A stretch of 57,920 bases of DNA from a virus (Duplodnaviria > Caudoviricetes): the IMG/VR virus record IMGVR_UViG_3300043447_000200, positions 1 to 57,920 of that record; one strand, 5' to 3'. The notes under the pieces were generated by a model, which was not told the origin of the DNA, searched no databases, and saw only the letters and a program-made list of their open reading frames with translations. The position numbers and the translations under genes were made by a program. The first letter of the stretch is position 1, and every line of letters starts with the position of its first letter. Of the stretch, positions 11,606 through 45,906 are shown piece after piece.

Positions 11606-14600
11606 ATGGCGACTGGAGTTAACCTCTCCGCCCTGTTTGACAATCCACCACAGGGCGCAGGGGCAGTTGCTCCTGCCGCTCCGTCCGTCAATCGAACAGG
11701 CGTAAATCTCGACAACCTCTTCTACAAGGACAGCGAACAAGCTGGTTCAGAGGTTCGCAGGGGCGGTATTGCGCCGCCTCCTCAGACCGTTCAGCCGACC
11801 ACTCCAATCGAGCCAGAACGCTCGCAAACTCGAATCCTAGACCTGGGTACCAACTACACCTACAACGGCCCACGCATCGAGGATCCAGCCCCCAAAGAGC
11901 CAGGCTTGAACCTGATGGGTTCTGCCGCCAAGGGCATCAAAGCGGTCAAGCTGACATGGGACTTTCTGGCCAACAAGCTGGAGAACGCCGTCACCGGATC
12001 TGATGAGGACACCGGTGCGATCTTGGCCAAGAGCGCTGCCGAATACAAAGCCATGGAATCTGACCCTCGCATTGCCGAGATGGTCAAGAAGGGTGACAAC
12101 GCAGAAACCACCCCTGCCGCTGTGTACGACATGCTCTCGTTTGCCGTGCGCAACCCCACCATGGTGGCCAACTTCGTGGCCGAGCAAGTTCCTTCCGTCG
12201 TTGTTGGTGGTGGACTCGGTGCTGTGGCTACCGCACCCGTTCGCGCTGGCATCACCGGCCTTGCTACCCGAGCTGGCGCAAGCGCTGCAACCCAAGCTGT
12301 CGTGGGCGCTGGTGCTACCGGCGCATCCGTAGCCTCGTCTGCCGTGGTGCTGCAATCCCTTGGCTCGAACTATGCCGAGGGCCTGGACAAGTTCAAAGGC
12401 GACAAGGATCTGGCGTCAGACTACGCCGTGACCAAGACCGCCAACGAAGTGCCTGCAAACGCCATTGCTGGCGCTTTCCTGGGCTTCAACCCCTTTGCAT
12501 CCAAGATCGCCAACATCGCCCTGCAAGCCAACATCCAAGGTGTTGGTGGTGCAACTGGCGCTTACATGGCGTCCAAGTCGGTTGGCGAAGATCCAAGCCG
12601 TGGCGAGATGCTGCTCGAGTATTTGGGCGAAGCTGCCTCAGCGCCTGTCGACATCGGCATTGAGAAGCTGTCACAGCGTAAAGCTGGCGCAGCCGACACG
12701 ACCGCTGTCAACCCGCCTCCTGCTGGCTCCGTGCCGCCCGCTGGTCCTGTGGTCGACGACACACAAACCGAACGCCAAGGGCTGCAAGTCATCCCCCGCA
12801 AGGAGCTGCTTGCCACCCTCAAGGACATGGATGCCGTTGCCTACCTGTACAGCACAGGCAACAAAGAGCAGAAGCAAAGCATCGAAACCGCGATCGACCG
12901 TGCCGGTACTGATTACCGCCAAGCATTCGACGCAACCGTTGGTCGTGAGCAAAACATCATGGCTGGTGAGCGCAAGCTCGGCCAAGAGCCTTTGTTCGTT
13001 GACTCGCTGCGCAACGCGATCGACGTATTCGGGAATACCCTTAATCTCAACTCAACCGCCAAGGTCGCCAAGAAGCCTGCCGTTGAGCCAGCCCCGATCG
13101 ACGACCCTGACTTTGTGGCTAATCAGGACGCCGAAGCCGAGCGTATTCTGGCTGACGCGGAGCGCCGCAAGAGCCAGCAAAAGCCAGCTCCTTTGAACCT
13201 GCCAGAAGGCGTCAAGTTCGCCGACCTGCCAGCTCAAGAGAAGGTCAAGGCCCTGGCTGCTGACGCGCCCTCTGCCGATTGGGAGAAGGGCAAGGCGAAC
13301 CAATACGGCGTGACCACACACTTTGGACCTGAGAGCCAAAGCGCTGATGTGCGCCCTACCCGCTTCTCGCATCCAGCTCTGCCCAACCTGTTTTACGACA
13401 GCGAGCGCAAGCTGTTCGACTCTTTGAAGATCCGCAAGGACGCCAAGGAAAAGGGTTTGTGGACTGCTGCTCGTCCAGCCGAAAGCACATCCAAGGTTTT
13501 GAACGTCAACAAGACGGCGACCCAGATTCAAGAAGCCGCTGACCAGGCTGCGACCAGCCCCAACAACGATCTGCCTGAGCCAACCGAAGGCCAGAAGAAG
13601 GCTGGAAACTACACCAAGGGTCACACCACCCTGCAAGGTATCGACATCACCATCGAGAACCCTCGTGATTCAAACCGTAGCGGCACATCGCCAGACGGCA
13701 CGAGCTGGTCAAACAAGATGGCGCACCACTACGGCTACATCAAAGGCTCTGTTGGCGCTGACAAAGACCATGTCGACACCTTTATTGGGGAAAACCCTGA
13801 TAGCAAGAAGGCGTTCGTCATTGACCAAGTGAACCCTGATGGCTCATTCGACGAGCACAAGGTCATGCTTGGCTTCGACACAGCCGAGGAAGCTCGTGCT
13901 GGCTACCTCGCCAACTACTCCAAAGGCTGGACCGGTCTCGGCGCCATGACCGAGATGCCTGTTGAGGCGCTCAAGTCATGGGTCAAGGACGGCAAGAAGA
14001 AGCAGCCATTGGGCGACCTCGAGGCCAAGCCACAGAGCGAAGTCGACAAGGCCAAGCAGGACCTGAAAGACGCCGCCTTCGACTTGTGGGATGTGGCGTC
14101 TGACGCCGCAGGCACAAAGATGAACATCACTGGCAAGCGCTACACCGTGGCCGACTTGCCAAAGGCAATCCAAAAGGTGATGGAAGCCCTGGTCAAACTC
14201 GGCTATGTCCAGTTTAAGGACATGTCTGCCGAGCTGATGAAGCGCATGCGCGCCAACGAGAACTGGAAAGATCTCGCAGACAACGTTTCCCCCGCCATGC
14301 TGCGTCAGGCGTACAAGAAGCTGGCCGATTTCGACGGCAAGCAGACTGACGCCGAAGTTGACGCCGTGCTTGGCAAGGATCTGGAATCCGTCACCCGCGG
14401 TAAGAACACAGCCAAAGAGCCTGTGCGCCCAGCGGAAAAGGAAGAGGTCGTCAAGCCAAAGCAGCAGGCCAAGCCAGCGACCGCACCCGCGCCCAAGACC
14501 GTCACGCAAGAGATCGCCAGCCGAATCGAAAAGCTCGATCTCGGCAAGGAGCGCACTCAAGCCAAAGAGCTGCTGCGTCAAGGCAAGTACGACGAGGCAG

Positions 14601-17600
14601 AGGCTGTCGTCAACAACTTCTACAAGAAGCAGGCCGAAGCCAAGAAAGCTGACCTGCTCGGCGCTCGTCGCAAGGCAGAGCAACTGGAGAAGGTGAAGAA
14701 CGCATTCAAGATCAGCGAAGCGATCCTGACCAACTTCCAGAACCGCACCAACGCCTCACGCAAGCGCGATGGCCTTGAGCCTATCGACGTTGTGCCTGAC
14801 TTCAAAGCACAGCTCGATGCCTTGCTTGGCGCTGACACCACACAGATGAACGTTGAGCGAGCCAACGAGTTGATCTCGTATCAGGCTTCTATCCTTGCTC
14901 GCATGCTGATCCGCAACGGCAAGATCAACGCTGGCGGCAAGCTGTTCAAGGCGATGAACTTGGGCTACGAGCAGGTCATCAAGACCATGCAGTCCATCCG
15001 CGCCGGTGCTGATGTTTCTCCTGGCGAGATCAGCGGCGGCAAGATCCAAGACAAGCGCCCAACCATTCCGAACAATGAGTTGGCCAAGTACCCATCTCTG
15101 GAGCGCCGCGTCAACGAGATGCGAGCCAAGCTCCAGTTGCTCGAGTCTTCGTCTGACGCCAAGGAAAAAGAAGTCAAAGCAGCCAAGGGCGACTTGATCG
15201 ACATGCTCAAGTACCTCGGCACACAGGACATGAAGAAGCTCAAGGATATGGACGATACCTGGGCGGCTTTGTACAAGGCTGAGGCTGGCGAGAAGCAGGC
15301 TCAGATGCGCCTTGACCTGGGCGAGAACCAACGCACTGAGCGTCAGCTCAAACTCGACACTCGATTCAAGAACATCATCAACGACATCACTGGCGCCAAC
15401 CTGCTCAAAGAAGCGATGCAGGATCTGCGCGACAAGATCGAACGCCTCGATGCGCTGATTGCGCAGGAAGATCGACCATACCGCCCAGACGAACTGCGCG
15501 GCTTGTTCGGCATGTTCGATGAGAGCACATACGCCCGTGATGAAGAAGGCTTCCGTGGTGACCGTGCCAACACAACTCGTGACGATCTGGTCTACGAGCG
15601 CTCACGCTTGTCGAAAGAACTTTCCGAAGCAACCAAGGACGGTATCAAAGGCAAGGCCAAGCGTCTTGAAAAAGGTATCGAGAAGCTGCGCGATCGCATG
15701 ATCAACGCTGGCCAATCTGCTGTTGCTGGCGGCATGTCATTCGAGGATGTTGCTCAAGTGATGGGCAAGTACCTGCAAGACCTGGGCTTCGCGCAGAACG
15801 GCGGCATCGTCAACGTCAACAAGGATGTTGAAGAGCAATTCAACCAAGGCGAGAAGGACATCGCTGAGTCGCAGACCTTTGACCTGTTCGAAGAGAACAA
15901 GGCAGTCGAGCAGCTTGCCGCTGGCGAGTTGTCTGCACAAGAAGCAGCTAAGGTTGCTGGCGTCCTTGACCCCAGGACCACTGTCGTTGAGGCGATGAAT
16001 GTCTTGGCTCGTCAGATCAAGGATCTTGGCAAGACAGGCTTCGAAGCTGAGTACACATCCAAGCTGCGTCAAGTATCAGGCTGGATCGCAAAGAACATGC
16101 GAGCCAACACCCTGCTCTTCTCGCAGGTTCAAGACGCTTTCCGCGGCAACGGTATCGACCTGCCAATCGAGATGGTGAACAACACCATGGTGGCGATGCA
16201 CACCCCCATGCTCGAGTACGCCAAGCAACAAGGTGGCGGCTACGCTCCTCGCGAGTTCTGGCTGCGCTCGATGGATCAAGCGATTGAGTTCAACCCTGAT
16301 GTTGAAACAAACGGCACATTCACTGATGCCGAACTTGCCATGTACGACGAGTGGAAAGAGCGCCAGCAAGCCTTGCGTGATCGCAGGGATGATGCGCGTA
16401 TCGAAGAGTCGCCCTCGATGCAGGATGCCTTCTCCGGCATGCTGTTCATGCGCTACTCGCTGGCTCAGATGAAGAACCCTCGCTTGATTGCGAACGAGCG
16501 TGACCGTCTGAACCTGACCAACTCGATCCCTGATCTGGTCAACGCATGGCATGCTGACCTGGAGCTTGCTCTCCAGAAGCGCTCTGACCTTTTCAAACAA
16601 CTGACAGACGCCGAAGACGGCGCTGTGCTGCCAACCGACTACGCAGAACATCAGGCATGGCGTGAACGCAAAGCCAAGGCCGATGAGCTGAAAGCCGAGA
16701 TGATTGCCAAGTCTCAGTACTACTTGGCGCTCCCCTCCTTCGAGGGCTTGAGCGACGAGCAGGTTGATGCCTTGCGCACCAAGCTCGTTCAGTCCGACGT
16801 GGCTTCTTCTGATTACGTACTTGAGCTTGCCAACATGATGGCCGAAGCAAACCAAGCGGCCAAGCCAAGCAAAGACGCCGTGGTGGATCCAGAGACCGGT
16901 GAGCTGGTCGACCCCGCGGAACTTGCTCGATCACAAATCGTCGACGACATGCTGGCTCGTGACCAGAGCATTGAGGCTTTGGCTGAGGCTTTCGGCACAC
17001 GCGACAAGAAGAAGTTGGCTCCGATCATGCAGTCGATGGACGCTGGCACAGCCGATGTGACCACCGCCGAGGGCAGCTTTGCTCGTCTGGCTGACGAGTC
17101 TGGCTCTGGCGAGTTCATGCCGGATCCAGAGGATCTCGATTCATACGAGATGCTGCAAGAATCCGCCGAGAACAGCGAAGGAATGGACGGCCTCGATGAT
17201 CCCCTGCGCTTCAAGCATGGCTTCTTCTCTGGCTTGTTGACCAACGCCCAGGTGCAGTCAACTGTGGCTCGCCTGACACAAGGCTGGAAGAGCGCACCTC
17301 AGATCGTCACATTGAAGAACGTGGCGCAGTTGCCTGACGGCCTGCGTGAGCGTGTGATGGAGAAGCTGCAAGGCGACATGGGTGCTCGCGGCCTGTTCGA
17401 CAGCGAGACCGGTGTGACCTACCTGTTCTCCGACATGATGCGCAGCGATGCCGATGTCGAGTTCACGCTCTACCACGAGGTCTATGGCCACCTTGGTATG
17501 CGCGCATTCCTTGGCGCCAAGTTCGATGCAACGCTCAACAGCCTGTACGCCAACCACTCAAGCATCAAGTCCAAGGCTGATGCCTTGATTGCTGCCGGTC

Positions 17601-20600
17601 GCCCCAAGCTGGAGGCGATCGACGAGGTGCTGGCTGACATGGCAGGCAAGAACGAACAGGCTGGCGCAGTCAAGCAGTGGGTCGGTCAGATGATCGACGG
17701 TCTGCGTGAATTAGGGTTTACCCGTATCGCAGATTGGATGTCGAAACTCACCGGTGCTGACCTGGCTTACTACCTGAACGGCGCTCGCAAAGCTGCACAG
17801 AACAACGAGTACAAGGTGATGGACGGCGCACCCGCCGAGATCCGCTTGTCCGAAGTCATGCATGACCGCCTGTACGAAATGTTCGCTGTGAAGGATGGCA
17901 AGACCACAGCATACGCTCGCTTCAACCCAATCACTCAATCATGGGCTGTGTTCACCGCGGCAGGCACTGGCAACGACATCCGCGCCGACGGCTACTCTGC
18001 TGGCGCTTACGACAGCTACGAGGCTGTGCTGGCGACGATGCGCAAGAACGGCAAGGTCGAGTTCCGCAAACGCTCTGGCGCATACATCGAAGACAAGATG
18101 CCCAAGGATCTGGCCAAGTTCTCTGAGGTTGCTGACCTCGGCACTGGCGCCAAGGGCATGGTCAAGCGCTGGATGCGTTCACTGATCACTCTGCACCAGA
18201 ACGAATTCCGTCCGATCTTTGACTTGGTTGAATACATTGCTCGCGAAGGTGTGCTGACTCCACGCATGGATGTGAAGACTGCGCTCATCAACTACGAGCG
18301 CCGCACAGCCGAGATCATTCGCTCGTTCAACCAGAGCTATGTGAAGCCCATCGAGCAGCTCGCCAAAGAAGCTGGCGAAATGGGCGCCGACTACGGCACG
18401 ATCAACACCTTCTTGCTGGCTCGTCACGCACCAAGCCGCAACGCTCAGATCGCTCGCATCAACGAGAACTTCCCTGACGGCGGCTCTGGCATGTACACCG
18501 ATGACGCCAAGGCTTTCCTTGAGTCAATCCAAGACGAGCCTTACTTCGAGAAGCTGCAAGAGATCGGCATGTACTTCGATCGCATGAGCGAGTACAAGCT
18601 GGCCTACCAAGTCAAGACCGGCATGATCACTGAGCGCCAAGCTGAGAAGATGGACTCGGTGTATGAGCACTACGTCAACCTGTCTGGCCAGAAGAACAAG
18701 CTCGACCAGTTCGACATCGGTCAGCTCGTTGGCACACGCTTCAACGTCAAGGGTAAAGAGGCTCGCGCCTTCGGTCGTTCTGAGCCAGCCTCAGACATCA
18801 TGGCCAACACAATCCTTGGCATGGAAGCGGCGCTCATCCGTGGCCAGAAGAACATCATTGCTCAACGCTTGCTGAACTTCTTAGAAGCCAACTACGACCC
18901 CAACTTCGCAGCCATCAACGCCATCGAGTACAAGCGCGTGATCGGTGAAGACGGCATGGTCATGGAAGTTGAGGACGGCGACTACATCCGTCGCAAGGAT
19001 GTGATGGTGGCCAAGGTCAACGGTATCCCTGTGACCATCCAGTTCAAGGACACAAGCCCTGGCTCATTTGCCGAGGCTATCCATGGCTCCGTCTATCCTA
19101 CCCAAAGCGGTGATGTGATGGAGTACATGGGCAAATTCAACCAGTTGATCGGTCGCATGCTGACCACACTGAACCCTGCCTGGGTTCCTGTGAACTTTGC
19201 GCGTGATGCTCAGTCGATGTATCTCAACGCCGCCTCTGACGGCAAGATCACCAAAGAGCAAGCGGCAGAAATGTTCAAGCTGCTGCCCAAAGCCATCAAG
19301 ACGGCGTACTACATGGATCGCTCCGAGAACGGCAAAGAGCCGAACATCGAGGTCGATCCAGAACTGATCCGTTTCTACCGCGAGATGCGCACATCAGGCG
19401 GTATGACCAGCTTCTTGAACCGCCGCAGCCTGGAAGAGACCGTGGCTGATGTGAATGTCATGCTCGGAGAAGCAACCAAGGCTCAACAGTTCAAGCAAAA
19501 AGCCAAGGATGTGATTGATTGGATCGAGCACTGGACCATCCCGATGGAAGTTGCGCCTCGTCTTGCTGCCTACAAGGTGGCTCGCGAGGGCGGTATGTCC
19601 AGAGAAGATGCCGCAGCGTTTGCCGGTGAGATCACCGTCAACTTCAACATGCGCGGATCCATGAAGTTCATGCGCCAAGCGTTCCTGTTCTACAACCCTG
19701 CCGTCCAAGGCATGGCCAAGATGGGTTCGTTGTTCTTCGACATCACCCCAGACTACGGCTTGAAGGTGAAGAAGGACAGCCTTGCATGGAAGTTTGCCGG
19801 CGGCCTGATGGTCTTGGGCATGATGACCAACCTGATCGCTCGCGCCACAGGCGACGACGATGAAGCTGGCCGCAACGACCTCGACAAGATCCCGACCTAC
19901 AAGCGGGCTACGTCGATCGTGTTGGCGCCCAATATCCCAGGTGGGGCTATCCCCATCCCTTACGGCTGGAACGCCTTCTACGCCACAGGACACTTCCTGA
20001 TGGACGGCATGCTCGGCATCCAATCGGCTAGCACCACAGCCAAGCGGATCTTCATGGCTACGCTGGACGCCTTCTCGCCGGTTCAAAGCTCTGGCTTAGA
20101 GTCGAAAACCTTGGCCGGCGGTCTGCTCAAGACCGTCTCGCCAACCGGTGTGCTGCCCCTGACCGAGCTGGCTTTGAACGAGAATCGCCAAGGCGCTCCG
20201 ATCTACAAGGAAGACGCCATCTTCGGTGGGCCAGAGCTGCCAAACAGCGAACGCGGGTTCCGTTCGACCTCGCCCATTTCCACCGGCTTGGCCAAGACGC
20301 TGAACCAGTGGGGTGGCAACACCATGCGGTCGGGCTACATCGACATGAACCCCGCGGTCATTGACCACCTAATCAGCTCATACCTCCCAGGCGCGATAAA
20401 TGAGACCTACAAGGGCGCCGGATTGATCGTAAGGGGTGCGCGTGGGGAAGAGGTCAGAAACACGCCCTTGCCCCTTTTGGACCGTCTGACGGCCAAGGTT
20501 TCTGACACCTACGATGCCTCAGCCTTCCGGCGCGCCAGCACCCTGATCAACACCCGTTACAAGGAATACGAGCTGTACCCAGATCGCCGTCAGGAAATCC

Positions 20601-20842
20601 TCAAGGAAGTTCCTGGCCTGCTCCGCGCTCAGGCGATCATGTCCAGCACGACGCAGGAGATCAGGAAGCTGGAGGCCGACCAGAAGATGATCGAGTCACC
20701 GCTGTCCAAGCAGACCGACGAGTACAAGGTCCAGCGTTTGAACCGGATGCGCGAGACTGAAAGGCGCCTCTACACCCGAGCCGTGAAAGCGGTGATGGAG
20801 TCAGGCGGCGAACTGCGGGACGCACTGATGAATTCAAACTAA
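11606..20842 (+). CDS. Large polyvalent virion protein (inorganic-pyrophosphatase-like domain, zincin-like HExxGH domain, LPD38-like C-terminus)
   Basis: 3078 aa. AGNYTKGH...IENP...HYGYI.G..GAD.DHVD...FDEHKVMLGF at about 13570-13995; YHEVYGHLG at about 17471; IPIPYG...NENRQGAPI near the C-terminus. Confidence 0.8.
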   Translation: MATGVNLSALFDNPPQGAGAVAPAAPSVNRTGVNLDNLFYKDSEQAGSEVRRGGIAPPPQTVQPTTPIEPERSQTRILDLGTNYTYNGPRIEDPAPKEPGLNLMGSAAKGIKAVKLTWDFLANKLENAVTGSDEDTGAILAKSAAEYKAMESDPRIAEMVKKGDNAETTPAAVYDMLSFAVRNPTMVANFVAEQVPSVVVGGGLGAVATAPVRAGITGLATRAGASAATQAVVGAGATGASVASSAVVLQSLGSNYAEGLDKFKGDKDLASDYAVTKTANEVPANAIAGAFLGFNPFASKIANIALQANIQGVGGATGAYMASKSVGEDPSRGEMLLEYLGEAASAPVDIGIEKLSQRKAGAADTTAVNPPPAGSVPPAGPVVDDTQTERQGLQVIPRKELLATLKDMDAVAYLYSTGNKEQKQSIETAIDRAGTDYRQAFDATVGREQNIMAGERKLGQEPLFVDSLRNAIDVFGNTLNLNSTAKVAKKPAVEPAPIDDPDFVANQDAEAERILADAERRKSQQKPAPLNLPEGVKFADLPAQEKVKALAADAPSADWEKGKANQYGVTTHFGPESQSADVRPTRFSHPALPNLFYDSERKLFDSLKIRKDAKEKGLWTAARPAESTSKVLNVNKTATQIQEAADQAATSPNNDLPEPTEGQKKAGNYTKGHTTLQGIDITIENPRDSNRSGTSPDGTSWSNKMAHHYGYIKGSVGADKDHVDTFIGENPDSKKAFVIDQVNPDGSFDEHKVMLGFDTAEEARAGYLANYSKGWTGLGAMTEMPVEALKSWVKDGKKKQPLGDLEAKPQSEVDKAKQDLKDAAFDLWDVASDAAGTKMNITGKRYTVADLPKAIQKVMEALVKLGYVQFKDMSAELMKRMRANENWKDLADNVSPAMLRQAYKKLADFDGKQTDAEVDAVLGKDLESVTRGKNTAKEPVRPAEKEEVVKPKQQAKPATAPAPKTVTQEIASRIEKLDLGKERTQAKELLRQGKYDEAEAVVNNFYKKQAEAKKADLLGARRKAEQLEKVKNAFKISEAILTNFQNRTNASRKRDGLEPIDVVPDFKAQLDALLGADTTQMNVERANELISYQASILARMLIRNGKINAGGKLFKAMNLGYEQVIKTMQSIRAGADVSPGEISGGKIQDKRPTIPNNELAKYPSLERRVNEMRAKLQLLESSSDAKEKEVKAAKGDLIDMLKYLGTQDMKKLKDMDDTWAALYKAEAGEKQAQMRLDLGENQRTERQLKLDTRFKNIINDITGANLLKEAMQDLRDKIERLDALIAQEDRPYRPDELRGLFGMFDESTYARDEEGFRGDRANTTRDDLVYERSRLSKELSEATKDGIKGKAKRLEKGIEKLRDRMINAGQSAVAGGMSFEDVAQVMGKYLQDLGFAQNGGIVNVNKDVEEQFNQGEKDIAESQTFDLFEENKAVEQLAAGELSAQEAAKVAGVLDPRTTVVEAMNVLARQIKDLGKTGFEAEYTSKLRQVSGWIAKNMRANTLLFSQVQDAFRGNGIDLPIEMVNNTMVAMHTPMLEYAKQQGGGYAPREFWLRSMDQAIEFNPDVETNGTFTDAELAMYDEWKERQQALRDRRDDARIEESPSMQDAFSGMLFMRYSLAQMKNPRLIANERDRLNLTNSIPDLVNAWHADLELALQKRSDLFKQLTDAEDGAVLPTDYAEHQAWRERKAKADELKAEMIAKSQYYLALPSFEGLSDEQVDALRTKLVQSDVASSDYVLELANMMAEANQAAKPSKDAVVDPETGELVDPAELARSQIVDDMLARDQSIEALAEAFGTRDKKKLAPIMQSMDAGTADVTTAEGSFARLADESGSGEFMPDPEDLDSYEMLQESAENSEGMDGLDDPLRFKHGFFSGLLTNAQVQSTVARLTQGWKSAPQIVTLKNVAQLPDGLRERVMEKLQGDMGARGLFDSETGVTYLFSDMMRSDADVEFTLYHEVYGHLGMRAFLGAKFDATLNSLYANHSSIKSKADALIAAGRPKLEAIDEVLADMAGKNEQAGAVKQWVGQMIDGLRELGFTRIADWMSKLTGADLAYYLNGARKAAQNNEYKVMDGAPAEIRLSEVMHDRLYEMFAVKDGKTTAYARFNPITQSWAVFTAAGTGNDIRADGYSAGAYDSYEAVLATMRKNGKVEFRKRSGAYIEDKMPKDLAKFSEVADLGTGAKGMVKRWMRSLITLHQNEFRPIFDLVEYIAREGVLTPRMDVKTALINYERRTAEIIRSFNQSYVKPIEQLAKEAGEMGADYGTINTFLLARHAPSRNAQIARINENFPDGGSGMYTDDAKAFLESIQDEPYFEKLQEIGMYFDRMSEYKLAYQVKTGMITERQAEKMDSVYEHYVNLSGQKNKLDQFDIGQLVGTRFNVKGKEARAFGRSEPASDIMANTILGMEAALIRGQKNIIAQRLLNFLEANYDPNFAAINAIEYKRVIGEDGMVMEVEDGDYIRRKDVMVAKVNGIPVTIQFKDTSPGSFAEAIHGSVYPTQSGDVMEYMGKFNQLIGRMLTTLNPAWVPVNFARDAQSMYLNAASDGKITKEQAAEMFKLLPKAIKTAYYMDRSENGKEPNIEVDPELIRFYREMRTSGGMTSFLNRRSLEETVADVNVMLGEATKAQQFKQKAKDVIDWIEHWTIPMEVAPRLAAYKVAREGGMSREDAAAFAGEITVNFNMRGSMKFMRQAFLFYNPAVQGMAKMGSLFFDITPDYGLKVKKDSLAWKFAGGLMVLGMMTNLIARATGDDDEAGRNDLDKIPTYKRATSIVLAPNIPGGAIPIPYGWNAFYATGHFLMDGMLGIQSASTTAKRIFMATLDAFSPVQSSGLESKTLAGGLLKTVSPTGVLPLTELALNENRQGAPIYKEDAIFGGPELPNSERGFRSTSPISTGLAKTLNQWGGNTMRSGYIDMNPAVIDHLISSYLPGAINETYKGAGLIVRGARGEEVRNTPLPLLDRLTAKVSDTYDASAFRRASTLINTRYKEYELYPDRRQEILKEVPGLLRAQAIMSSTTQEIRKLEADQKMIESPLSKQTDEYKVQRLNRMRETERRLYTRAVKAVMESGGELRDALMNSN

Positions 20843-21022: not shown

Positions 21023-21055
21023 AAGAGCTTAGAGCAATCTAGGCTCTTTCTTTTT
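21023..21055 (+). terminator. Intrinsic terminator for the reconstituted tRNA
   Basis: AAGAGCTTAGA-GCAA-TCTAGGCTCTT followed by a T-tract. Confidence 0.8.
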
Positions 21056-22112
21056 AGGCGACGTGTAGGTTTTGTACATTCGCCCTGTCTGGCACCCGCG
21101 TGACCATGCGTTCCAGCCGCCTTGCCGAGCTGCTCAGATGGGACACATCGAGGTGCGCGTAACGCCTCACCATCGACTCATCCTCCCACCCGCCCAGCTC
21201 CTGGATCCGGTCGAGGGTTTCACCGTCCTGCCGTAGCCAGCTTGCCCAGGTGTGGCGCAAGTCGTGCCACCGAAAGTCGGTGATTCCTGCCTTCTCCAGC
21301 GCCGCTTTCCACATCTTGGGCGGGATGTCCCTGATCTGCTCCCCATCCCAACGCGGGAAAACCAGCGTGTCGTGCTTTCCTACCTGCGCCTTGATGACCT
21401 CGACTGCCACATCGTTGAGGGGGATCGAGAACGGGTTGCCGTTCTTCATGACCTGGCCTGGGAATGTGGCGATCCGTCTGGTCAGGTTGATCTGTGACCA
21501 TTTCAGACCGAACACATTCGCCCGCCTCAGACCGGTCATCACGGCGAATAAAGACATCGCCTGAAACGGTTGAGGCAGAGCTGGCATCAGGCGCATGAAC
21601 TCGTCATGGGTGATATACCGCAGCCGCTCCGACTCTTCGAATGTCGGGAACTTAGGGTTAACCCCTAGCCACATATATTCTCTGGCGCAGGCGTTGATCA
21701 CGGCCCTCAAGAAGCTGAGATACCGGTTGATCGTGCCGTTTGCCAGAGCTTCACCATGCCGATTCTGGCGCTCACGCAACTCGTCGATCACATCCCCCAC
21801 AACTTCGGGGTCTACTTCATCTAGGTAGACGATGCTACGAGACTCGAACTCTTTGTCCCAGAACGCCCGAAATCTGACATCCTCGCGACTCGACTTCTTG
21901 TGCTCGTGCTCTTTCATCCACCGATTTGCACCATCAGTCCACAGGTGCCTCGGCTTATCGCCTAGCCTACGCTCACGCCAAGCCTTGGCCTTCTCTTGAT
22001 CGTGATACTCAAGCGCTTGCTTCTCATCCGTGGTGTGGCATGAAGCTCGGAAGAACTTACCCTTCACCCAGAACTGATACCACCACACATTTCCTCGACG
22101 GTAAATTGCCAT
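21054..22112 (-). CDS. int: Tyrosine recombinase / phage integrase
   Basis: TGLRR, KNG, HDLRHTWAS, LGGW and RRYAH catalytic motifs; N-terminal arm-binding domain. Confidence 0.97.
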   Translation of the reverse strand: MAIYRRGNVWWYQFWVKGKFFRASCHTTDEKQALEYHDQEKAKAWRERRLGDKPRHLWTDGANRWMKEHEHKKSSREDVRFRAFWDKEFESRSIVYLDEVDPEVVGDVIDELRERQNRHGEALANGTINRYLSFLRAVINACAREYMWLGVNPKFPTFEESERLRYITHDEFMRLMPALPQPFQAMSLFAVMTGLRRANVFGLKWSQINLTRRIATFPGQVMKNGNPFSIPLNDVAVEVIKAQVGKHDTLVFPRWDGEQIRDIPPKMWKAALEKAGITDFRWHDLRHTWASWLRQDGETLDRIQELGGWEDESMVRRYAHLDVSHLSSSARRLERMVTRVPDRANVQNLHVA

Positions 22113-39693: not shown

Positions 39694-39860
39694 GGCGATC
39701 CTTTCGATTGCATCCACTCAAGCAGGACATCGCGGGCTTCACGCGGGCCAACGCCGAATGAATCCTCGAGATGTTTGCCTGCGCCCATCATGTTCACGGC
39801 GCCAATCTCCCGAAGGTCATCGAGGTAGGCGAACATGTCTTGTTTCAAATCATTGCTCAT
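39690..39860 (-). CDS. Small conserved phage protein, 56 aa (absent from ORF track)
   Basis: FAYLDDLREIGAVNMMGA..L...F...EA..VL.EW; AGGAG RBS. Confidence 0.75.
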   Translation of the reverse strand: MSNDLKQDMFAYLDDLREIGAVNMMGAGKHLEDSFGVGPREARDVLLEWMQSKGSP

Positions 39861-40045
39861 GGTTGCTCCTTGGGCATGTGATATTCACAGCCGTAGTTGG
39901 TTCGGGGTGGATCAACGAACCACGGCGAGCGTGGTCCGGCTGGCTGACGCTCGAGGTATCGGCGGCAGGTGTTACATGGGGCGACAACCTCCCCTTCGTC
40001 GGTGCTCACGGCAACACAACGGCAGATGTCGAACGGTAGGGTCAT
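39857..40045 (-). CDS. Cys-rich small protein
   Basis: DICRC...CNTCRRY...C. Confidence 0.65.
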   Translation of the reverse strand: MTLPFDICRCVAVSTDEGEVVAPCNTCRRYLERQPAGPRSPWFVDPPRTNYGCEYHMPKEQP

Positions 40046-40281: not shown

Positions 40282-40451
40282 GGCTGTGTGTCTTCGGCTG
40301 CATGGATACCCATGGCCTCAAGCCTGGCCACGCAGTACTCGACCGTGCAGTTGATGTCGTCAGCCTTCTCGCGGATCTCGTTAAGCTCATGCAAAGAGCC
40401 GTTCAGCTCCTCCCAGATCACTCCAAGGATTGCTTTTTGTGCTTCATTCAT
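40263..40451 (-). CDS. Hypothetical protein
   Basis: GAGG RBS before ATG at 40451. Confidence 0.55.
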   Translation of the reverse strand: MNEAQKAILGVIWEELNGSLHELNEIREKADDINCTVEYCVARLEAMGIHAAEDTQPCPKSN

Positions 40452-40896
40452 CGTTCCACCTCTTTGGATCAATGCAGGCAGCTTCACCGAAGGTGCACGG
40501 TCCACACATTTCAGAGCGGTAGATCTGCTTGCCATCCTTCACGCCAGTGACTGTTGGTTTCTGACCACAGACTTCGCAGTCATGCTGATAGTCAGGCTCG
40601 AAACGGTCGATCGACAGCACCTCATCATTAAGTGCGGCCTCCATCTCGGCATCAAACTCGGCGTATGGATCGCCGCCAGCCATGTGATGGTTGCTCGGGC
40701 AGTCGATAGCGCCGAGATACCCGTCAGCCCAGCCGTCGCAGGTCTGATTGCCAGCAACAAAGGTTTGATGCTTGGGTGATGCTCGGTTCAGGCAGTAAGC
40801 CTCCACCGGTTTGCCGCCTTCGGCTTTGGCGATCATCTCCGACCAGTAGCGGCAGCTCTGGCAGGTCTTGGCTGATGAATAGTTCCTGTGATCCAT
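40444..40896 (-). CDS. Cys-rich (Zn-binding) hypothetical protein
   Basis: Three CxxC motifs. Confidence 0.65.
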   Translation of the reverse strand: MDHRNYSSAKTCQSCRYWSEMIAKAEGGKPVEAYCLNRASPKHQTFVAGNQTCDGWADGYLGAIDCPSNHHMAGGDPYAEFDAEMEAALNDEVLSIDRFEPDYQHDCEVCGQKPTVTGVKDGKQIYRSEMCGPCTFGEAACIDPKRWNDE

Positions 40897-40985
40897 AGGT
40901 ATTACTTTCGTGCGTGTAAATATTGAACAGAGAGTGAGGCCAAAAGCGAAGTGGTGAGGTCGGCGAACCGACCCCACCTCTATCG

Positions 40986-41857: not shown

Positions 41858-42362
41858 GAGTTAGCTCCAGAAAAGTGAGTGGTGAGAACAAGATGACCTA
41901 CGCACGGCGTAATCCGGTGCAAAAGCTCTGGATTAGGTATGCAAAAGTCACAAATCAAAGAAGAAGGAGTGGAGACCACCCCCCATGTGGGGTGGTTGAA
42001 ACGAGAACAGAAGCTACACATCTAGGTAGCAAGTCCTTGATACAGCTAGCTGACCTGCGGAGTATGGATCTGCACAGATGGTGGATCGGCGCTAGCAGGC
42101 CTACCCCCGAGTGGACGCAGCTACGAAGTACGGGGGTATGAGGACTCCACTGCTATCACCATCTCACACACGAGCTTCATCATTTTTTTTCTAAACCTTG
42201 GACAACCCCCAGATCGTGGATGCCGTTTCCTCAGCTTCTTTGGTGCCTTGGCTGCGTTGAAATAGGTGGGGGTATACCTACCCCTAGGGGACCATCGAAA
42301 AAAGCTTGTAGGGGGCTTTAACAATCCCTGCGATAATTTTTTTCACGAAAAAGGAGCAGACG

Positions 42363-42623
42363 ATGATGAACGCAGAGTACGTGCAAAACTTCCTACGCCG
42401 CTTTGAGCCGTTGAAGGAGATCGAGGTATCGCCTCAGTCGGATTTGGTGCTGGCACCGAACTTGGTGAAGGTTCACGGGATGGTGATGATCTACGGTGAA
42501 CCGCATGCCTTCGAAGCCGATTTGGATCTGAACGAGTTCGGTGGCCAGGACGATTTGATCAAACTGGCTGGCCAGTTGCTCAAGAGCTTTGCTGCTGCAA
42601 GTCGAGTGGTCACACCGGCATAG
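42363..42623 (+). CDS. Hypothetical protein
   Basis: AAGGAG RBS; 86 aa. Confidence 0.7.
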   Translation: MMNAEYVQNFLRRFEPLKEIEVSPQSDLVLAPNLVKVHGMVMIYGEPHAFEADLDLNEFGGQDDLIKLAGQLLKSFAAASRVVTPA

Positions 42624-42842
42624 AGATGGTTACCGACGGTAGGAGGTAACCGTCGATGATTACCGTTACTACGGTTATCCGTAGTACGGTTTACCGTAGT
42701 ACGGTTAACCATATATTTTTATTATTGTTTTGGATTAGTTATTGTTTTTGGATAAGAGATGGTTCTACGTATAACCGGTTATACGTATAACGGTTCTACG
42801 TAGTACCGATGGTTCTACGTATATATTTATAAATATATATTC
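42624..42842. repeat. Palindrome/iteron-like array, candidate replication origin
   Basis: CCGTAGTACGGTT repeats, GGTTCTACGTA x3, perfect palindromes at 42766-42787 and 42820-42839, AT-rich tracts. Confidence 0.65.
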
Positions 42843-42858
42843 GCAAGGATCGTGCCAA
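42843..42858 (-). promoter_or_regulatory. Sigma-54 (-24/-12) consensus site
   Basis: TTGGCACG-ATCC-TTGC on the minus strand. Confidence 0.6.
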
Positions 42859-43073
42859 GTGTTTGAAAAGGTCATGTACACAGCTTGAAAACCACCGGAT
42901 ATGCTGACGCCAGTGGCTGAGTTTTTGCTCTCGTTTTTCCTCTGCCATGACCCCAGCGGCTGGTGGGGATGTAACCGCCGCAGTCAGAGCCGACGACCTC
43001 CTCTAAGCGTTTCATGGGCGGTGATCTGACCGATTCACCCACGTCACGGGTGGTTTAACTTTTGGAGTGGATA

Positions 43074-43232
43074 ATGAAGCCAGGTCTTTACGCAAACATT
43101 CACGCCAAGCGTGAACGCATCGAGAGCCAGAAAGCCGCGGGCAAGACCCCTGAGAAGATGCGCAAGCCTGGATCCAAGGGCGCCCCAACGGACGCTGACT
43201 TCAAGGCTTCGGCAAAGACCGCCAAGAAGTGA
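43074..43232 (+). CDS. 52-aa basic conserved phage protein (absent from ORF track)
   Basis: MKPGLYANIHAKRERI...KMRKPGSKGAPT..DFK.SAKTAKK; GGAG RBS. Confidence 0.85.
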   Translation: MKPGLYANIHAKRERIESQKAAGKTPEKMRKPGSKGAPTDADFKASAKTAKK

Positions 43233-43255
43233 TTGTTGGTAGCTGGCGCTACCCT

Positions 43256-43364
43256 CAACACGCATGAGGACTGCTGATGGAGCCAGTGGTAGCAGCAGCC
43301 AACCCAGCAATGGGTTACGGATAATCGGGGGTTCGACTCCCCCCATCAGTCCTCAGTCGTGTTG
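43256..43364 (+). ncRNA. Long stem enclosing a tRNA-like domain
   Basis: CAACACG/CGTGTTG and TGAGGACTG/CAGTCCTCA stems; internal GGGGG-TTCGACT-CCCCC T-arm. Confidence 0.55.
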
Positions 43365-43448
43365 GTGGAAACGGATTAGCCCCGTGGGGTTTTTGTGTGT
43401 TCAATTGCGGCCTCCACCCTGCTTCATGGGAGCCACCAACAACCGTTA

Positions 43449-43522
43449 CGCAGGAAGGTCAAGTGACCCGACCGGTCTCATAAGCCGAGTTGTGCGTGGA
43501 GCGTTACCACGTCCTGCAACCA
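43449..43522 (+). tRNA. Atypical tRNA-Met(CAT), initiator-like
   Basis: C1:A72 mismatch, CT-CAT-AA loop, ACCA end; non-canonical T-loop AGCGTTA and 4-nt D-loop. Confidence 0.7.
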
Positions 43523-43649
43523 GATCTAAGCCGAAGGCTCGGGTTTCAATCTAACAACCCTGAGGTTCACCGCACCAAGAAACAGAAGCGGCAAAACACC
43601 GTGTACACTTCGAGGCATGAAACAAGTCTTCCAACCGCGACCGACAAAT

Positions 43650-43725
43650 CTGGGTGTAGCTCAGATGGCAGAGCGCGCGCTTTGGGAGCGTGAGGTCGCA
43701 GGTTCGAAGCCTGTCACCCAGACCA
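43650..43725 (+). tRNA. tRNA-Pro(TGG)
   Basis: Canonical cloverleaf, CCA encoded. Confidence 0.95.
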
Positions 43726-43782
43726 ATTCAAACTCATCCAACTCAACGACGCGAAATTCGCGTTATTGACCATCCCTGCAAC

Positions 43783-43869
43783 GGGGATGCGGTGCAGTTG
43801 GTGAGGCACGGCAGACTGTAAATCTGTTCTCTTATGAGTGAGTAGGTTCGATTCCTACCATCCCCACCA
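43783..43869 (+). tRNA. tRNA-Tyr(GTA)
   Basis: Cloverleaf with long variable arm, CCA. Confidence 0.93.
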
Positions 43870-43888
43870 AGACCCCTCCCAAAGTTAT

Positions 43889-43963
43889 TCCGAGGTAGCA
43901 CAGCGGTAGTGCAGTTGGCTGTTAACCAATTGGTCGCTGGTTCGATCCCAGCCCTCGGAGCCA
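43889..43963 (+). tRNA. tRNA-Asn(GTT)
   Basis: TCCGAGG/CCTCGGA acceptor stem, GCCA end. Confidence 0.95.
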
Positions 43964-43966
43964 TAC

Positions 43967-44050
43967 GGAGGTTGGCGCGTAGGACGCAAACAGGGCTTGA
44001 ACCCCTGGCCATCCGCAAGGGTGAGGGTTCGATTCCTTCAACCTCCGCCA
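43967..44050 (+). tRNA. tRNA-Ser(TGA)
   Basis: CAGGG-CTTGAAC-CCCTG anticodon arm, long variable arm, reduced D-loop, GCCA end. Confidence 0.85.
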
Positions 44051-44053
44051 AAC

Positions 44054-44129
44054 GCTGGCGTAGCTCAGTTGGCAGAGCAGCCGCCTTGTAAGCGGAAGGT
44101 CGCGGGTTCGATGCCTGCCGCCAGCACCA
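44054..44129 (+). tRNA. tRNA-Thr(TGT)
   Basis: Canonical cloverleaf, CCA. Confidence 0.95.
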
Positions 44130-44212: not shown

Positions 44213-44446
44213 ATGGCAGCACGCATGCGCAAATACCATCAAGACGAAGTGAGGGCGAAAATCCAAGCTTCGCAGCTCGTCAACCGTCTGACCGATTGCG
44301 CGATGGGCAGAGTTGTACTCAACACACAACAAGTCCAGGCGATCAAGGTCCTACTGGACAAGTCTCTCCCCAACCTGTCCGACGTGAAGATCGAAACGTC
44401 AGGTAACGGCATCACGTTCAACCTCAATGCCAATCTTCCGAAATGA
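44213..44446 (+). CDS. Terminase small subunit (putative)
   Basis: Directly upstream of TerL; RAKIQASQLVNRL...LLDK.LP.L. Confidence 0.6.
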   Translation: MAARMRKYHQDEVRAKIQASQLVNRLTDCAMGRVVLNTQQVQAIKVLLDKSLPNLSDVKIETSGNGITFNLNANLPK

Positions 44447-45906
44447 CAGATCTGGCCGTTGCCGACTATGCCGATGAAGGACTGGTCACCTACTTTCCTC
44501 CAGGGCCAAACGCCGCCCTGTTCCACAACGACCACTCCTTCGTCCGCGGCCTCATGGGGCCGGTCGGTTCTGGTAAGTCGTCTTCCTGCTGCTCCGAGAT
44601 CGTCATGCGAGCCATCAAGCAGGAGCCGTGGTACGACAAGGTCAGACGATCGCGATGGGCCATCATCCGAAACACCTACCCCGAGCTGAAGTCCACCACG
44701 ATCAAAACGTGGCAAACCTGGTTCCCCCAGAACGTGGCGCCTATCCGCTGGGATACGCCCATCACCTCGACCATGCGCATCGACGACATTGGCGACGGCA
44801 CAGCCCTTGAGCTGGAAGTCGTCTTCTTGGCGCTCGATTCCGAGATGGACACTGGCAAGCTGCGTTCACTCGAACTCACTGGCGTCTGGATCAACGAAGC
44901 ATCTGAGATCGCCAAGGGCGTGTTCGACATGTGCACCCAGCGTGTGGGGCGCTATCCCTCCAAGTTGAAGGGTGGCCCAAGCTGGACCGGCGTGATCATG
45001 GATACCAACCCACCCGACGACGACCACTGGTATTACCAGTTCGCCGAGGTGGAAACGCCAAAAGCATGGAAGTTCTTCCGTCAGCCTGGCGGCTTGTACC
45101 GCGACGAGGACGGCACCTACCATCCCAATCCAGAGGCCGAGAACACTGACAACCTGCCCAACGGCCACCAGTACTACATGAACCAGATCGCCGGTAAGAC
45201 CGAGGGCTGGATCAATGTGTTCCTGATGGGCAACTACGGCACGACCTCAGACGGCAAGCCGGTCTACCCTGAGTGGAATGACCGAGTGCATGTGTCCGAC
45301 AAACCGCTTGAGCCTGTGCGTGGCCTGCCCATCATCCTTGGGTGGGACTTCGGGTTAACCCCAGCATGCATCATTGGCCAACAGATGCCCACCGGCCAGC
45401 TCCGGATCCTCGAAGAGATCATCGCCGAGGACATGGGTATTCGCCAATTCGTGTCTGATGTGGTTCGCCCGATCCTCACGAACAAGTACAACGGCTTCAC
45501 CCGATTTTCCGAAGGCGACCCTGCTGGCCAGATCCGCGCTCAGACCGATGAGCGCACCTGCTTGCAAGAGCTTCTCGAACTAGGCATCCCTACTGAGCCT
45601 GCGCCAACCAATGATTGGATCCCACGGCGCGAATCAGTGGCGTACTTCCTGACCCGCATGATTGACGGCGCTGGCGGCTTATTGCTCGACCCGCGCTGCT
45701 CAACACTGCGCAAAGGATTCAATGGTCGCTACCGCTATGAACGCCTGAAATCCTCAGGCCAAGCGCGATACAGAGACCGCCCTGTCAAGGATGCGTTCTC
45801 GCACCCCCACGACGCTCTCCAGTATTTGTGCATGCGAGTTCGCAATGGCCTGCGCCCTGTGCGCGCTCGTACCGTTGCAACCGTATCAAGTAAAGGTTGG
45901 ACCTGA
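44443..45906 (+). CDS. terL: Terminase large subunit
   Basis: Walker A GPVGSGKS, Walker B WINEA, DTNPP, nuclease GWDFG and SHPHDALQY. Confidence 0.96.
   Translation: MTDLAVADYADEGLVTYFPPGPNAALFHNDHSFVRGLMGPVGSGKSSSCCSEIVMRAIKQEPWYDKVRRSRWAIIRNTYPELKSTTIKTWQTWFPQNVAPIRWDTPITSTMRIDDIGDGTALELEVVFLALDSEMDTGKLRSLELTGVWINEASEIAKGVFDMCTQRVGRYPSKLKGGPSWTGVIMDTNPPDDDHWYYQFAEVETPKAWKFFRQPGGLYRDEDGTYHPNPEAENTDNLPNGHQYYMNQIAGKTEGWINVFLMGNYGTTSDGKPVYPEWNDRVHVSDKPLEPVRGLPIILGWDFGLTPACIIGQQMPTGQLRILEEIIAEDMGIRQFVSDVVRPILTNKYNGFTRFSEGDPAGQIRAQTDERTCLQELLELGIPTEPAPTNDWIPRRESVAYFLTRMIDGAGGLLLDPRCSTLRKGFNGRYRYERLKSSGQARYRDRPVKDAFSHPHDALQYLCMRVRNGLRPVRARTVATVSSKGWT

Follow-up and report, generated by a model that had tools for sequence, protein, structure and literature searches.

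What kind of RNA is encoded by the hairpin-rich interval at positions 42913-43440 of the virus genome IMGVR_UViG_3300043447_000200, and does it act on other messages or within its own? The window, meaning the whole stretch of DNA analyzed, is a complete virus record of 57,920 bp from a temperate tailed phage. The interval sits in a 1.8-kb nearly gene-free stretch bounded by an 86-aa open reading frame (ORF, 42363-42623) on one side and by a 77-aa ORF and the terminase gene on the other. An earlier note, made from the sequence alone, had read the interval as a set of trans-acting silencing RNAs linked to a tRNA cluster, in which stable stems carry interchangeable guide loops antisense to translation-initiation regions (loop a, 43391-43420; loop b, 42993-43018; loop c, 42922-42942). 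Comparison with related phages instead resolved it into parts of two conserved folded RNAs, here called Element 1 and Element 2, and a protein gene (43074-43232) that had been overlooked. Judged by sequence, Element 1 very probably belongs to a known orphan RNA family, as a divergent branch, and Element 2 is an uncatalogued neighboring scaffold. We lean toward the view that 42913-43440 holds cis-encoded RNA modules heading a late-operon array and a cargo slot in front of the terminase gene, not a set of guides.

The case for Element 1 is comparative. Seventy-nine loci were fetched around relatives of the window's terminase, and BLAST across these terminase-related loci gave three conserved islands (42943-43051, 43256-43442 and 43446-43522) between diverged flanks. 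The Element 1 alignment (22 sequences, 24 base pairs) had 89.8% of its cells paired versus 73.7% in shuffled alignments, none of 500 of which reached the observed value, and 16 of the 24 pairs had changed on both sides. The covariation score was 0.464 versus 0.175 for shuffles and 0.03-0.11 for slid partners. RNAalifold found the same helices independently, and the indels of the alignment were not multiples of three. As several of the U-G pairs would be C-A on the opposite strand, Element 1 is a plus strand RNA. That the interval encodes structured RNAs linked to the tRNA cluster had been proposed in the earlier note and is borne out, as is its expectation that relatives would show conserved stems with variable loops: the stems are kept and the apical parts are hypervariable.

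The helices of Element 1 (Table 1) differ in the kind of support they have. In the H-type pseudoknot the P1 loop GCGG (42956-42959) pairs with CCGC (42978-42981), and UAAC and GCAG are invariant. This GCGG/CCGC helix was 100% paired in the 22 sequences, with a compensatory change to GCUG/CAGC in two of them, and P1 pair 12-29 is CG in 16 sequences and GC in five. Divergent members add further P1 and pseudoknot covariation, with GCCGG/CCGGC and GCCAG/CUGGC in other branches. The P3a helix is also 100% paired, all five of its pairs having changed on both sides, and the P3 internal loop, a G (42989) opposite UGA (43022-43024), is invariant; loop b is the P3 apex. Both-side changes were found in five of the seven P4 pairs, and the P4 loop has the consensus CGNNA. 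P4 plus the T-run behind it is terminator-like in the window, and a U-run follows P4 in only some other members. Support for the 5' hairpin is thermodynamic: it is seen in the minimum free energy (MFE) structure (z -0.94 for the window), and most of 21 distinct relatives have a predicted hairpin that stops 2-6 nt short of P1 (mean z -0.99, with four of the 21 below -2), its interior differing among them.

A covariance model, R1, was built from the Element 1 alignment of the window's group. In 48 of 80 sources R1 found one copy each, invariably on the strand of the terminase gene, and it found a single copy in the whole 57,920-bp genome; the terminases of the phages sharing Element 1 are only 65-78% identical. 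A degenerate pattern of the core was present in at least 120 viral contigs, and R1 matched 71 of 80 loci fetched with it. One branch, in phages of Pseudomonas aeruginosa such as PAJU2, is 98% conserved in 34 records, and its variant scored 29.8 bits on the Rfam model RF03044 (Proteo-phage-1), the gathering score of which is 42. The second hairpin of RF03044 and its 3' AAAACACCGGCAGCC align to P1 of Element 1 and the pseudoknot partner. Among loci fetched by an RF03044-type pattern, 12 of 20 passed the gathering score (~69-83 bits), and R1 matched 23 of 80 such loci (E 1.8e-8 to 7e-3). Three of them (L206, L214 and L220) were matched by both R1 and RF03044 (68.8-71.7 bits) and share the G/UGA loop, a CUCC apex, a CCGAAU linker and a P4 with a CGUAA loop. 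The window element gave no match to RF03044 at E<=10 on 42930-43070 and did not reach the 42-bit threshold; a search of the whole genome returned only an 11.4-bit noise match at 20034-20119. The trait of RF03044 in which the hairpin loop pairs with a downstream AACACCNGCAG segment is present in the window as GCGG/CCGC. Since the three loci are matched by both models, Element 1 can be placed as a divergent branch of the Proteo-phage-1 family, and we regard a relationship between the two as very probable from their sequences and folds.

The likeness lies in the H-type pseudoknot, in which the hairpin loop (A-GC[C/G]GG..GUG) pairs with AACACC[G/C]GCAG farther downstream, in a 5' hairpin directly upstream (model positions ~7-37), of which the window has a putative counterpart, and in the phage or prophage context. 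In contrast, the window pseudoknot, GCGG/CCGC, is one pair shorter, and most of the bona fide members fetched (L204 type) continue differently on the 3' side of the pseudoknot. The Rfam model covers the 5' half only, ending at GCAGCC without P3 and P4, whereas P3 and P4 are the best-conserved half in the window's group.

Unannotated elements of P22-, HK97/HK022- and D3-like phages belong to the family as well. In HK022 (L339) R1 matched 39756-39878, where the pseudoknot is GCCAG/CUGGC. The HK022-type element sequence is found in 165 phage records, including HK97 and P22, and in 1121 of 5426 complete Escherichia coli genomes; an annotated feature lay beneath one of the 12 matches listed. We observed further unannotated relatives of Element 1 at ~1501-1661 of the HK97 locus (L341) and at 2501-2661 of an E. 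coli prophage locus (L340). A folded RNA with ~30 invariant nucleotides therefore recurs in very different phages, namely a freshwater-type temperate phage, D3-like Pseudomonas phages, P22, HK97 and HK022. Because the same family is present in HK97 and HK022, its function is directly testable in E. coli K-12. What is new is that the conserved core includes the G/UGA loop, the CGNNA hairpin and an exposed CUCC motif, the catalogued model being the 5' half only, that Element 1 stands at the front edge of cargo-swap slots, and that a second RNA scaffold, uncatalogued in Rfam, adjoins it with variable and sometimes tRNA-like inserts. Proteo-phage-1 is attributed to the candidate set of Weinberg et al. 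2017 (PMC5737381), in the main text of which the motif name is absent. Literature searches found no paper naming Proteo-phage-1 or RF03044, and core sequence strings gave only unrelated papers. The thousands of unnamed phage RNA candidates to which PMC10690425 refers may already include either element.

The motif that bears on the guide hypothesis is the pyrimidine run in the P3 apex. CTCC occurs in 51 of 73 distinct P3 apexes versus 16.4 in composition-preserving shuffles (0 of 500 reached 51), and after clustering in 31 of 50 apexes versus 10.3 expected; CCTCC occurs in 15 of 73 versus 5.0. GGAG and GAGG were not enriched among the 73 apexes. In partition-function folds of P3, 46 of 52 CUCC sites had an unpaired probability above 0.5, with a mean of 0.74 versus 0.48 for the interior. 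This conserved CUCC loop is the only anti-ribosome-binding-site loop of the earlier note upheld in related phages. The ACCTCCT and TTTCAT reported for loop b are present between the CCG/CGG and TCAGA/TCTGA stems, and the CUCC within them is conserved and mostly unpaired, but the complement has AUG on the 5' side of the Shine-Dalgarno (SD) sequence, the wrong order for an initiation region. Nor do the loops behave as antisense copies of initiation regions: a complement of a start codon lay within 11 nt of CUCC on the 5' side in 11 of 65 sites and on the 3' side in nine of 65, hence no association. GGAG is carried by 23 of the 68 start regions of this phage. When the P3 apex was paired with these 68 regions, the best energy was reached by seven of 100 shuffled loops and the mean by 85 of 100; the best predicted duplex (-31.3 kcal/mol), no more than a lead, falls across the putative GTG start of the minus strand ORF 40444-40977. 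None of loops a, b and c paired with the 68 start regions better than shuffled loops. Capture of an SD sequence by CUCC in cis amounted in the window and in the L206 group to a 4-bp complementarity seen by eye; no covariation was found for it, and it is therefore not counted as evidence.

Loops a and c fared less well. The reverse complement of loop a, AGGGTGGAGGCCGCAATTGAACACACAAAA, is present as quoted, as is the outer stem around it, GTTGGTGG (43361-43368) with CCACCAAC (43433-43440). The CCUCCAC of loop a is paired with GUGGGG in the MFE structure and does not lie in a loop, and the CCUCC is not conserved, varying among relatives (CCCTCA, GCTCCAA, CCCCCA, CCCCGA and CCCTAA). For loop c the complement GAGGAAAAACGAGAGCAAAAA is present, but it includes a start codon only if a G:U pair is allowed, and the segment falls in the non-conserved interior of the 5' hairpin. 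Within 42913-43440 two complements of a start codon lie 4-9 nt from an anti-SD core versus 1.16 expected (155 of 500 dinucleotide shuffles reach two), and CCTCC occurs twice versus 0.73 expected (53 of 300 shuffles reach this count). On the whole the observation made in the earlier note is partly confirmed and its interpretation partly supported.

Within an operon, Element 1 stands at the leading edge of a slot whose cargo varies. It is placed 8-20 nt before the GGAG ribosome-binding site of the following cargo. In D3-like phages the stop codon of the upstream ORF lies inside the 5' hairpin, and in six of 11 D3-like loci an identical spacer and SD sequence lead to an ATG that belongs to a different gene in each of the six. 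A scan of 36 downstream proteins gave methyltransferases, HNH proteins, exonuclease, RDF, Rha, small terminase and structural proteins, with 15 of the 36 remaining without a match. This diversity argues against a metabolite riboswitch, a candidate that we rejected because no functionally coherent gene set follows the element among these 36 proteins. The element of HK022, HK97 and E. coli prophages has lysis (lysis/KilA-N) genes on one side and HNH endonuclease/terminase genes on the other. In the window's group the space between Element 1 and the 77-aa ORF or terminase is occupied by a gene, Element 2, tRNAs or nothing; a tRNA-like gene begins 5 nt after Element 1 in L010 and L083, and in several relatives the 5' arm of Element 2 comes directly after P4, where the window has a 52-aa gene in between. 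Homology in the L206 group ends ~8 nt after P4. On the other side of the element, a small CCAG-N5-CUGG hairpin (e.g. CCAGUCACACUGG) lies 5' of the 5' hairpin, ~30-45 nt upstream of Element 1, in many relatives among L016-L039; the window has a diverged version, and some relatives have a similar word in front of the 77-aa ORF. ACCAGYCAMAMT, a promoter-like word conserved on the upstream side of Element 1, was also considered and discarded, as it is not enriched in the window (18 matches versus 26.7 expected).

Element 2 has a long basal stem around a hypervariable insert. In the alignment its 5' arm reads CAACACG-CAU-GrGGAyUG and its 3' arm CAGUCCyC-AGy-CGUGUUG, with an insert of ~40-90 nt between them. 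Helix H2 was 98.2% paired and four of its eight pairs had changed on both sides, many pairs being G-U; this is modest support, as it comes from 14 close relatives. Distant relatives have the same arms with other inserts. An exact 18-mer from Element 2 is found in 16 viral contigs, in which the 3' domain is nearly invariant. That domain contains a terminator-like hairpin (43378-43391), a U-run, a C-rich stretch and the CCUCC of loop a (43411-43415). Its closing stem is GUUGGUA/UACCAAC in L003 and L006; L014 and L064 retain just GUUGG/CCAAC. The central CGUGUUGG has two potential partners, the 5' arm and the 3' end, and two folds are therefore possible. The window insert (43273-43352) is tRNA-like, with an acceptor-like stem, a canonical T arm and a GCAA-capped hairpin replacing the anticodon arm. 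Relaxed ARAGORN settings called it 'tRNA-???' with a 6-nt loop, and default settings gave no call. It is not a standard tRNA, as it lacks a 7-nt anticodon loop and scores 21.4 bits on the Rfam tRNA-Sec model versus a gathering score of 47. A T-arm-like GGTTCGAnTCC is found in the inserts of L323 and L328 and in those of L329 and L335, which are of the window's insert type; other inserts are unrelated. Element 2 had no Rfam match in the window and none in nine loci at E<=1.

In the reading we favor, Element 1 would be read within the late (structural) operon transcript, in the window in the order Element 1, 52-aa gene, Element 2, tRNA-like and tRNA genes, terminase. Its action would be in cis, as a folded leader or as a domain between cistrons. 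A factor might recognize its invariant junction nucleotides together with the CUCC loop, and the element could determine how the downstream cistron is translated or processed, or how stable it is. Enzymes of tRNA processing may release Element 2 and the tRNA-like units from the same precursor. Several points weigh against this account. The argument for a cis role of Element 1 is one of position alone, Rfam types RF03044 as 'Gene; sRNA', and the CUCC would suit the anti-SD seed of a trans-acting RNA equally well. CUCC is kept where no ORF follows, which argues against simple capture of the next SD sequence, and the P. aeruginosa variant lacks it. Many relatives of the window have no ORF after Element 1 and have tRNAs or Element 2 instead. 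The orientation of neighboring ORFs is noisy (same strand in 48 of 54 cases upstream and 38 of 57 downstream), coming from ORF calls too crude for orientation statistics, with a spurious ORF of at least 70 aa over 33 of 58 motifs. The 3' domain of Element 2 is almost invariant and nearly without covariation, so its fold is putative, and DNA signals (a terminator and a promoter) could explain why its sequence is conserved. Finally, single-sequence folding gives Element 1 no support (z +1.21 for 42880-43075 and +0.67 for 42945-43058), and the segments around Element 2 gave -1.16 (43233-43650) and -1.61 (43250-43445). The hairpins pointed out in the earlier note are at chance level in the window sequence taken alone; it is comparison with relatives that identifies conserved RNA structure. 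A bolder extension of the cis account, which we think distinctly unlikely in its entirety, is that Proteo-phage-1-type RNAs are portable expression gates for accessory-gene slots. The pseudoknot would respond to a factor or signal, and CUCC would capture or release the GGAG of cargo such as methyltransferases, nucleases, small proteins and tRNA arrays. The interchangeable inserts of Element 2, anticodon-less tRNA mimics among them, could be decoys for tRNA-directed host factors.

Among the competing explanations, the one nearest to the earlier note sees in Element 1 a trans-acting small RNA (sRNA), or the precursor of one, with a CUCC(U) anti-SD seed that would block host, competitor or phage mRNAs. 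The conserved and predicted unpaired CUCC fits this proposal, as does the Rfam typing of the parent family, and GGAG partners exist in about a third of this phage's start regions (23/68). Moreover, Element 1 stands at the head of a tRNA array, so RNase P or RNase Z could free a stable small RNA, L010 and L083 being cases in point. We nevertheless consider this explanation rather unlikely. No complement of a start codon accompanies CUCC, the loop pairs with the 68 start regions of its own phage no better than shuffled loops do, and a seed of 4-5 nt has no specificity. In D3-like phages the upstream stop codon inside the 5' hairpin leaves no room for a promoter of its own, and the U-run after P4 is found in only some members. 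Alternatively, Element 1 may be an RNA processing or insulator signal, either an endonuclease site or a protective 5' structure, that splits the late transcript by stability; the stacked helices of the pseudoknot could mimic a tRNA acceptor/T arm for RNase P, the CUCC being incidental. In its favor are the intercistronic site in the long operons of three unrelated phage groups, the tRNA and tRNA-like genes alongside in the window's group and the homology boundary directly behind the element. However, the element lacks CCA-like and T-loop motifs, its P4 loop being CGNNA, and ~30 invariant nucleotides over three domains are more than a simple nuclease site needs. To this alternative we give as little credence as to the expression gate.

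A role at the DNA level, as recombination linkers at cassette boundaries or as packaging or replication signals near iterons, with folding secondary, seems highly improbable. It would account for the different genes that fill the slots marked by the elements in relatives and for the break in homology at the 3' edge, and it draws on the iteron/AT-rich region just upstream and on a 3' domain of Element 2 conserved nearly without covariation. Against this, compensatory changes keep pairing, many U-G pairs would become mismatched C-A if the minus strand were the one that folds, the pseudoknot partners covary (GCGG/CCGC, GCUG/CAGC, GCCGG/CCGGC and GCCAG/CUGGC), and the orientation is fixed relative to the operon. 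That the hairpins are functionless, arising by chance or as remnants of ORFs on either strand, is hardly credible. The chance-level single-sequence statistics and the ORFs of 42-100 aa that overlap the region on both strands would agree with it, but both elements covary, one copy per genome is kept across phages whose terminases are only 65-78% identical, and the overlapping ORFs lack a protein-family match while the indels do not come in threes. The earlier note had named remnants of minus strand ORFs among the things that would overturn its proposal, and none were seen: the ORFs at 42872-43042 and 43044-43346 have no PHROG or Pfam match, and the U-G pairs fit the plus strand only.

Known systems offer partial parallels to these modules. 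The tRNA cluster of phage T4 encodes small stable RNAs (species 1 and 2, RNA C and D), and here too structured non-tRNA RNAs lie beside a phage tRNA cluster and are probably co-transcribed and co-processed with it; the comparison is by description only, and T4 is unrelated to this temperate phage. YrlA, a bacterial Y-RNA-like RNA, has a tRNA-mimic module closed by a long stem. Element 2 resembles it in having a tRNA-like domain, canonical T arm included, inside a long basal stem built from a 5' and a 3' arm, but it has no Rfam Y-RNA or YrlA match, and no Ro/Rsr-like gene was found among 60 ORFs scanned. The C/U-rich-seed sRNAs RsaE and RoxS of Firmicutes are independent genes with a promoter and a terminator, several C-rich repeats and known targets. 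Element 1 shares with them a pyrimidine motif exposed in a loop and complementary to the SD sequence; in contrast, it has one CUCC in a large pseudoknotted scaffold and no targets among the 68 phage start regions. The put sites of HK022, which we take to be located in early operons, are not the element described here, as R1's only HK022 match (39756-39878) lies between the lysis genes and HNH/terminase and not in the early operons. A folded RNA inside a phage operon makes put a possible analogue, by description only, for an operon-internal element, although the lambdoid carriers of Element 1 relatives already have Q antitermination. The put RNA is described in PMC9378689 as a cis-acting processive antiterminator, in which the nascent phage RNA acts without a dedicated protein.

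Traces of expression came from contigs of RNA libraries. Metatranscriptome run X7 gave contigs matching 43084-43233 (four differences) and 43389-43793 (one difference), and RNA run X22 gave 43463-43599 and 43660-43894 (no differences). They suggest, if weakly, transcription of the tRNAs and the CAU tRNA-like gene, of the 3' part of Element 2 and of the small gene; the contigs show neither transcript ends nor strand, and DNA carry-over is possible. Contigs from these two RNA libraries and a doubtful third leave 42300-43069, including Element 1, uncovered, which is uninformative either way. One sigma-70-like site was found (42690-42717), and the counts of promoter-like and terminator-like sequences were at shuffle level.

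Table 1 Features of the RNA modules, the small gene and the tRNA cluster in the window
Feature	Positions	Strand	Description	Program
Element 1	42913..43053	+	~140-nt folded RNA: 5' hairpin, H-type pseudoknot, P3, P4	
Element 1, 5' hairpin	42913..42948	+	Stem GUGGC 42913-42917 / GCCAU 42944-42948; variable interior holds loop c	
Element 1, H-type pseudoknot domain	42949..42983	+	P1 42951-42953 with 42965-42967	
Element 1, P3 hairpin	42984..43029	+	Stems TCAGA/TCTGA and CCG/CGG, variable apex, CCUCC 42997-43001	
Element 1, linker and P4 hairpin	43030..43053	+	Linker CCGAU, then P4 43035-43053 with loop CGUCA 43042-43046	
Small gene	43064..43232	+	SD GGAG 43064-43067, ATG 43074, 52-aa gene 43074-43232; directly behind Element 1	
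Element 2	43256..43440	+	Second conserved scaffold; holds loop a	
Element 2, basal stem	43256..43364	+	Encloses hypervariable insert; H1 CAACACG 43256-43262 / CGUGUUG 43358-43364	
Element 2, H2		+	GAGGACUG 43266-43273 / CAGUCCUC 43347-43354	
Element 2, 3' domain	43361..43440	+	Closed by GUUGGUGG/CCACCAAC; loop a (43391-43420) inside	
tRNA-like gene	43450..43522	+	CAU anticodon, atypical D and T loops	
Five canonical tRNA genes	43650..44129	+	Pro, Tyr, Asn, Ser, Thr	ARAGORN

The 52-aa protein encoded directly behind Element 1 is lysine-rich and belongs to phrog_16028 (E 3.2e-22); no Pfam family matched it. Among the terminase-related loci compared, its gene is present in the window only, and the slot of L055 holds a different small basic protein. 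The CAU tRNA-like gene has a 4-nt D loop and a non-canonical T loop, AGCGUUA, and was missed by default ARAGORN. It is 79-84% identical in L002, L010-L012 and L019, and its acceptor stem covaries (GCAGGA/UCCUGC versus GCGGGU/ACCCGC in L332); the L083 copy was called tRNA-Met by ARAGORN. Four of the five canonical tRNA genes score 54-69 bits on the Rfam tRNA model.

Protein-family scans of the window gave phage-type genes for an integrase (21054-22112, minus strand), Erf, an exonuclease, a primase/helicase and RusA. The structural operon on the plus strand comprises the terminase gene (44443-45906), an SU10-type portal, head and tail genes and a 3078-aa virion protein. The 3078-aa ORF (11606-20842) had raised the suspicion of an N4-like phage with DNA-hairpin promoters. 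This was rejected, as the ORF matches virion, lysozyme-like and DarB-like families, and the N4-like identity is also ruled out by the integrase, Erf and the P22/SU10-type head module. Segments of the ORF match lysozyme-like, minor-head and DarB-like antirestriction families, and it is probably a giant ejected virion protein and not an N4-type virion RNA polymerase.

Directly upstream of the RNA modules, 42624-42850 is an iteron-like array with four copies of a ~15-16-nt unit (CGGTT..CCGTAGTAC type) and four copies of GATGGTTCTACGTATA. The repeats flank an AT-rich core, with several palindromes alongside, and parts of the region are found again in L010, L011, L029 and L035; its role may be that of a replication origin or of a region where a regulator binds. 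A conserved spacer (43523-43650), common to L002, L327, L329 and L335, separates the CAU tRNA-like gene from tRNA-Pro and contains a small hairpin, CCGA AGGC TCGG, followed by GTTT.

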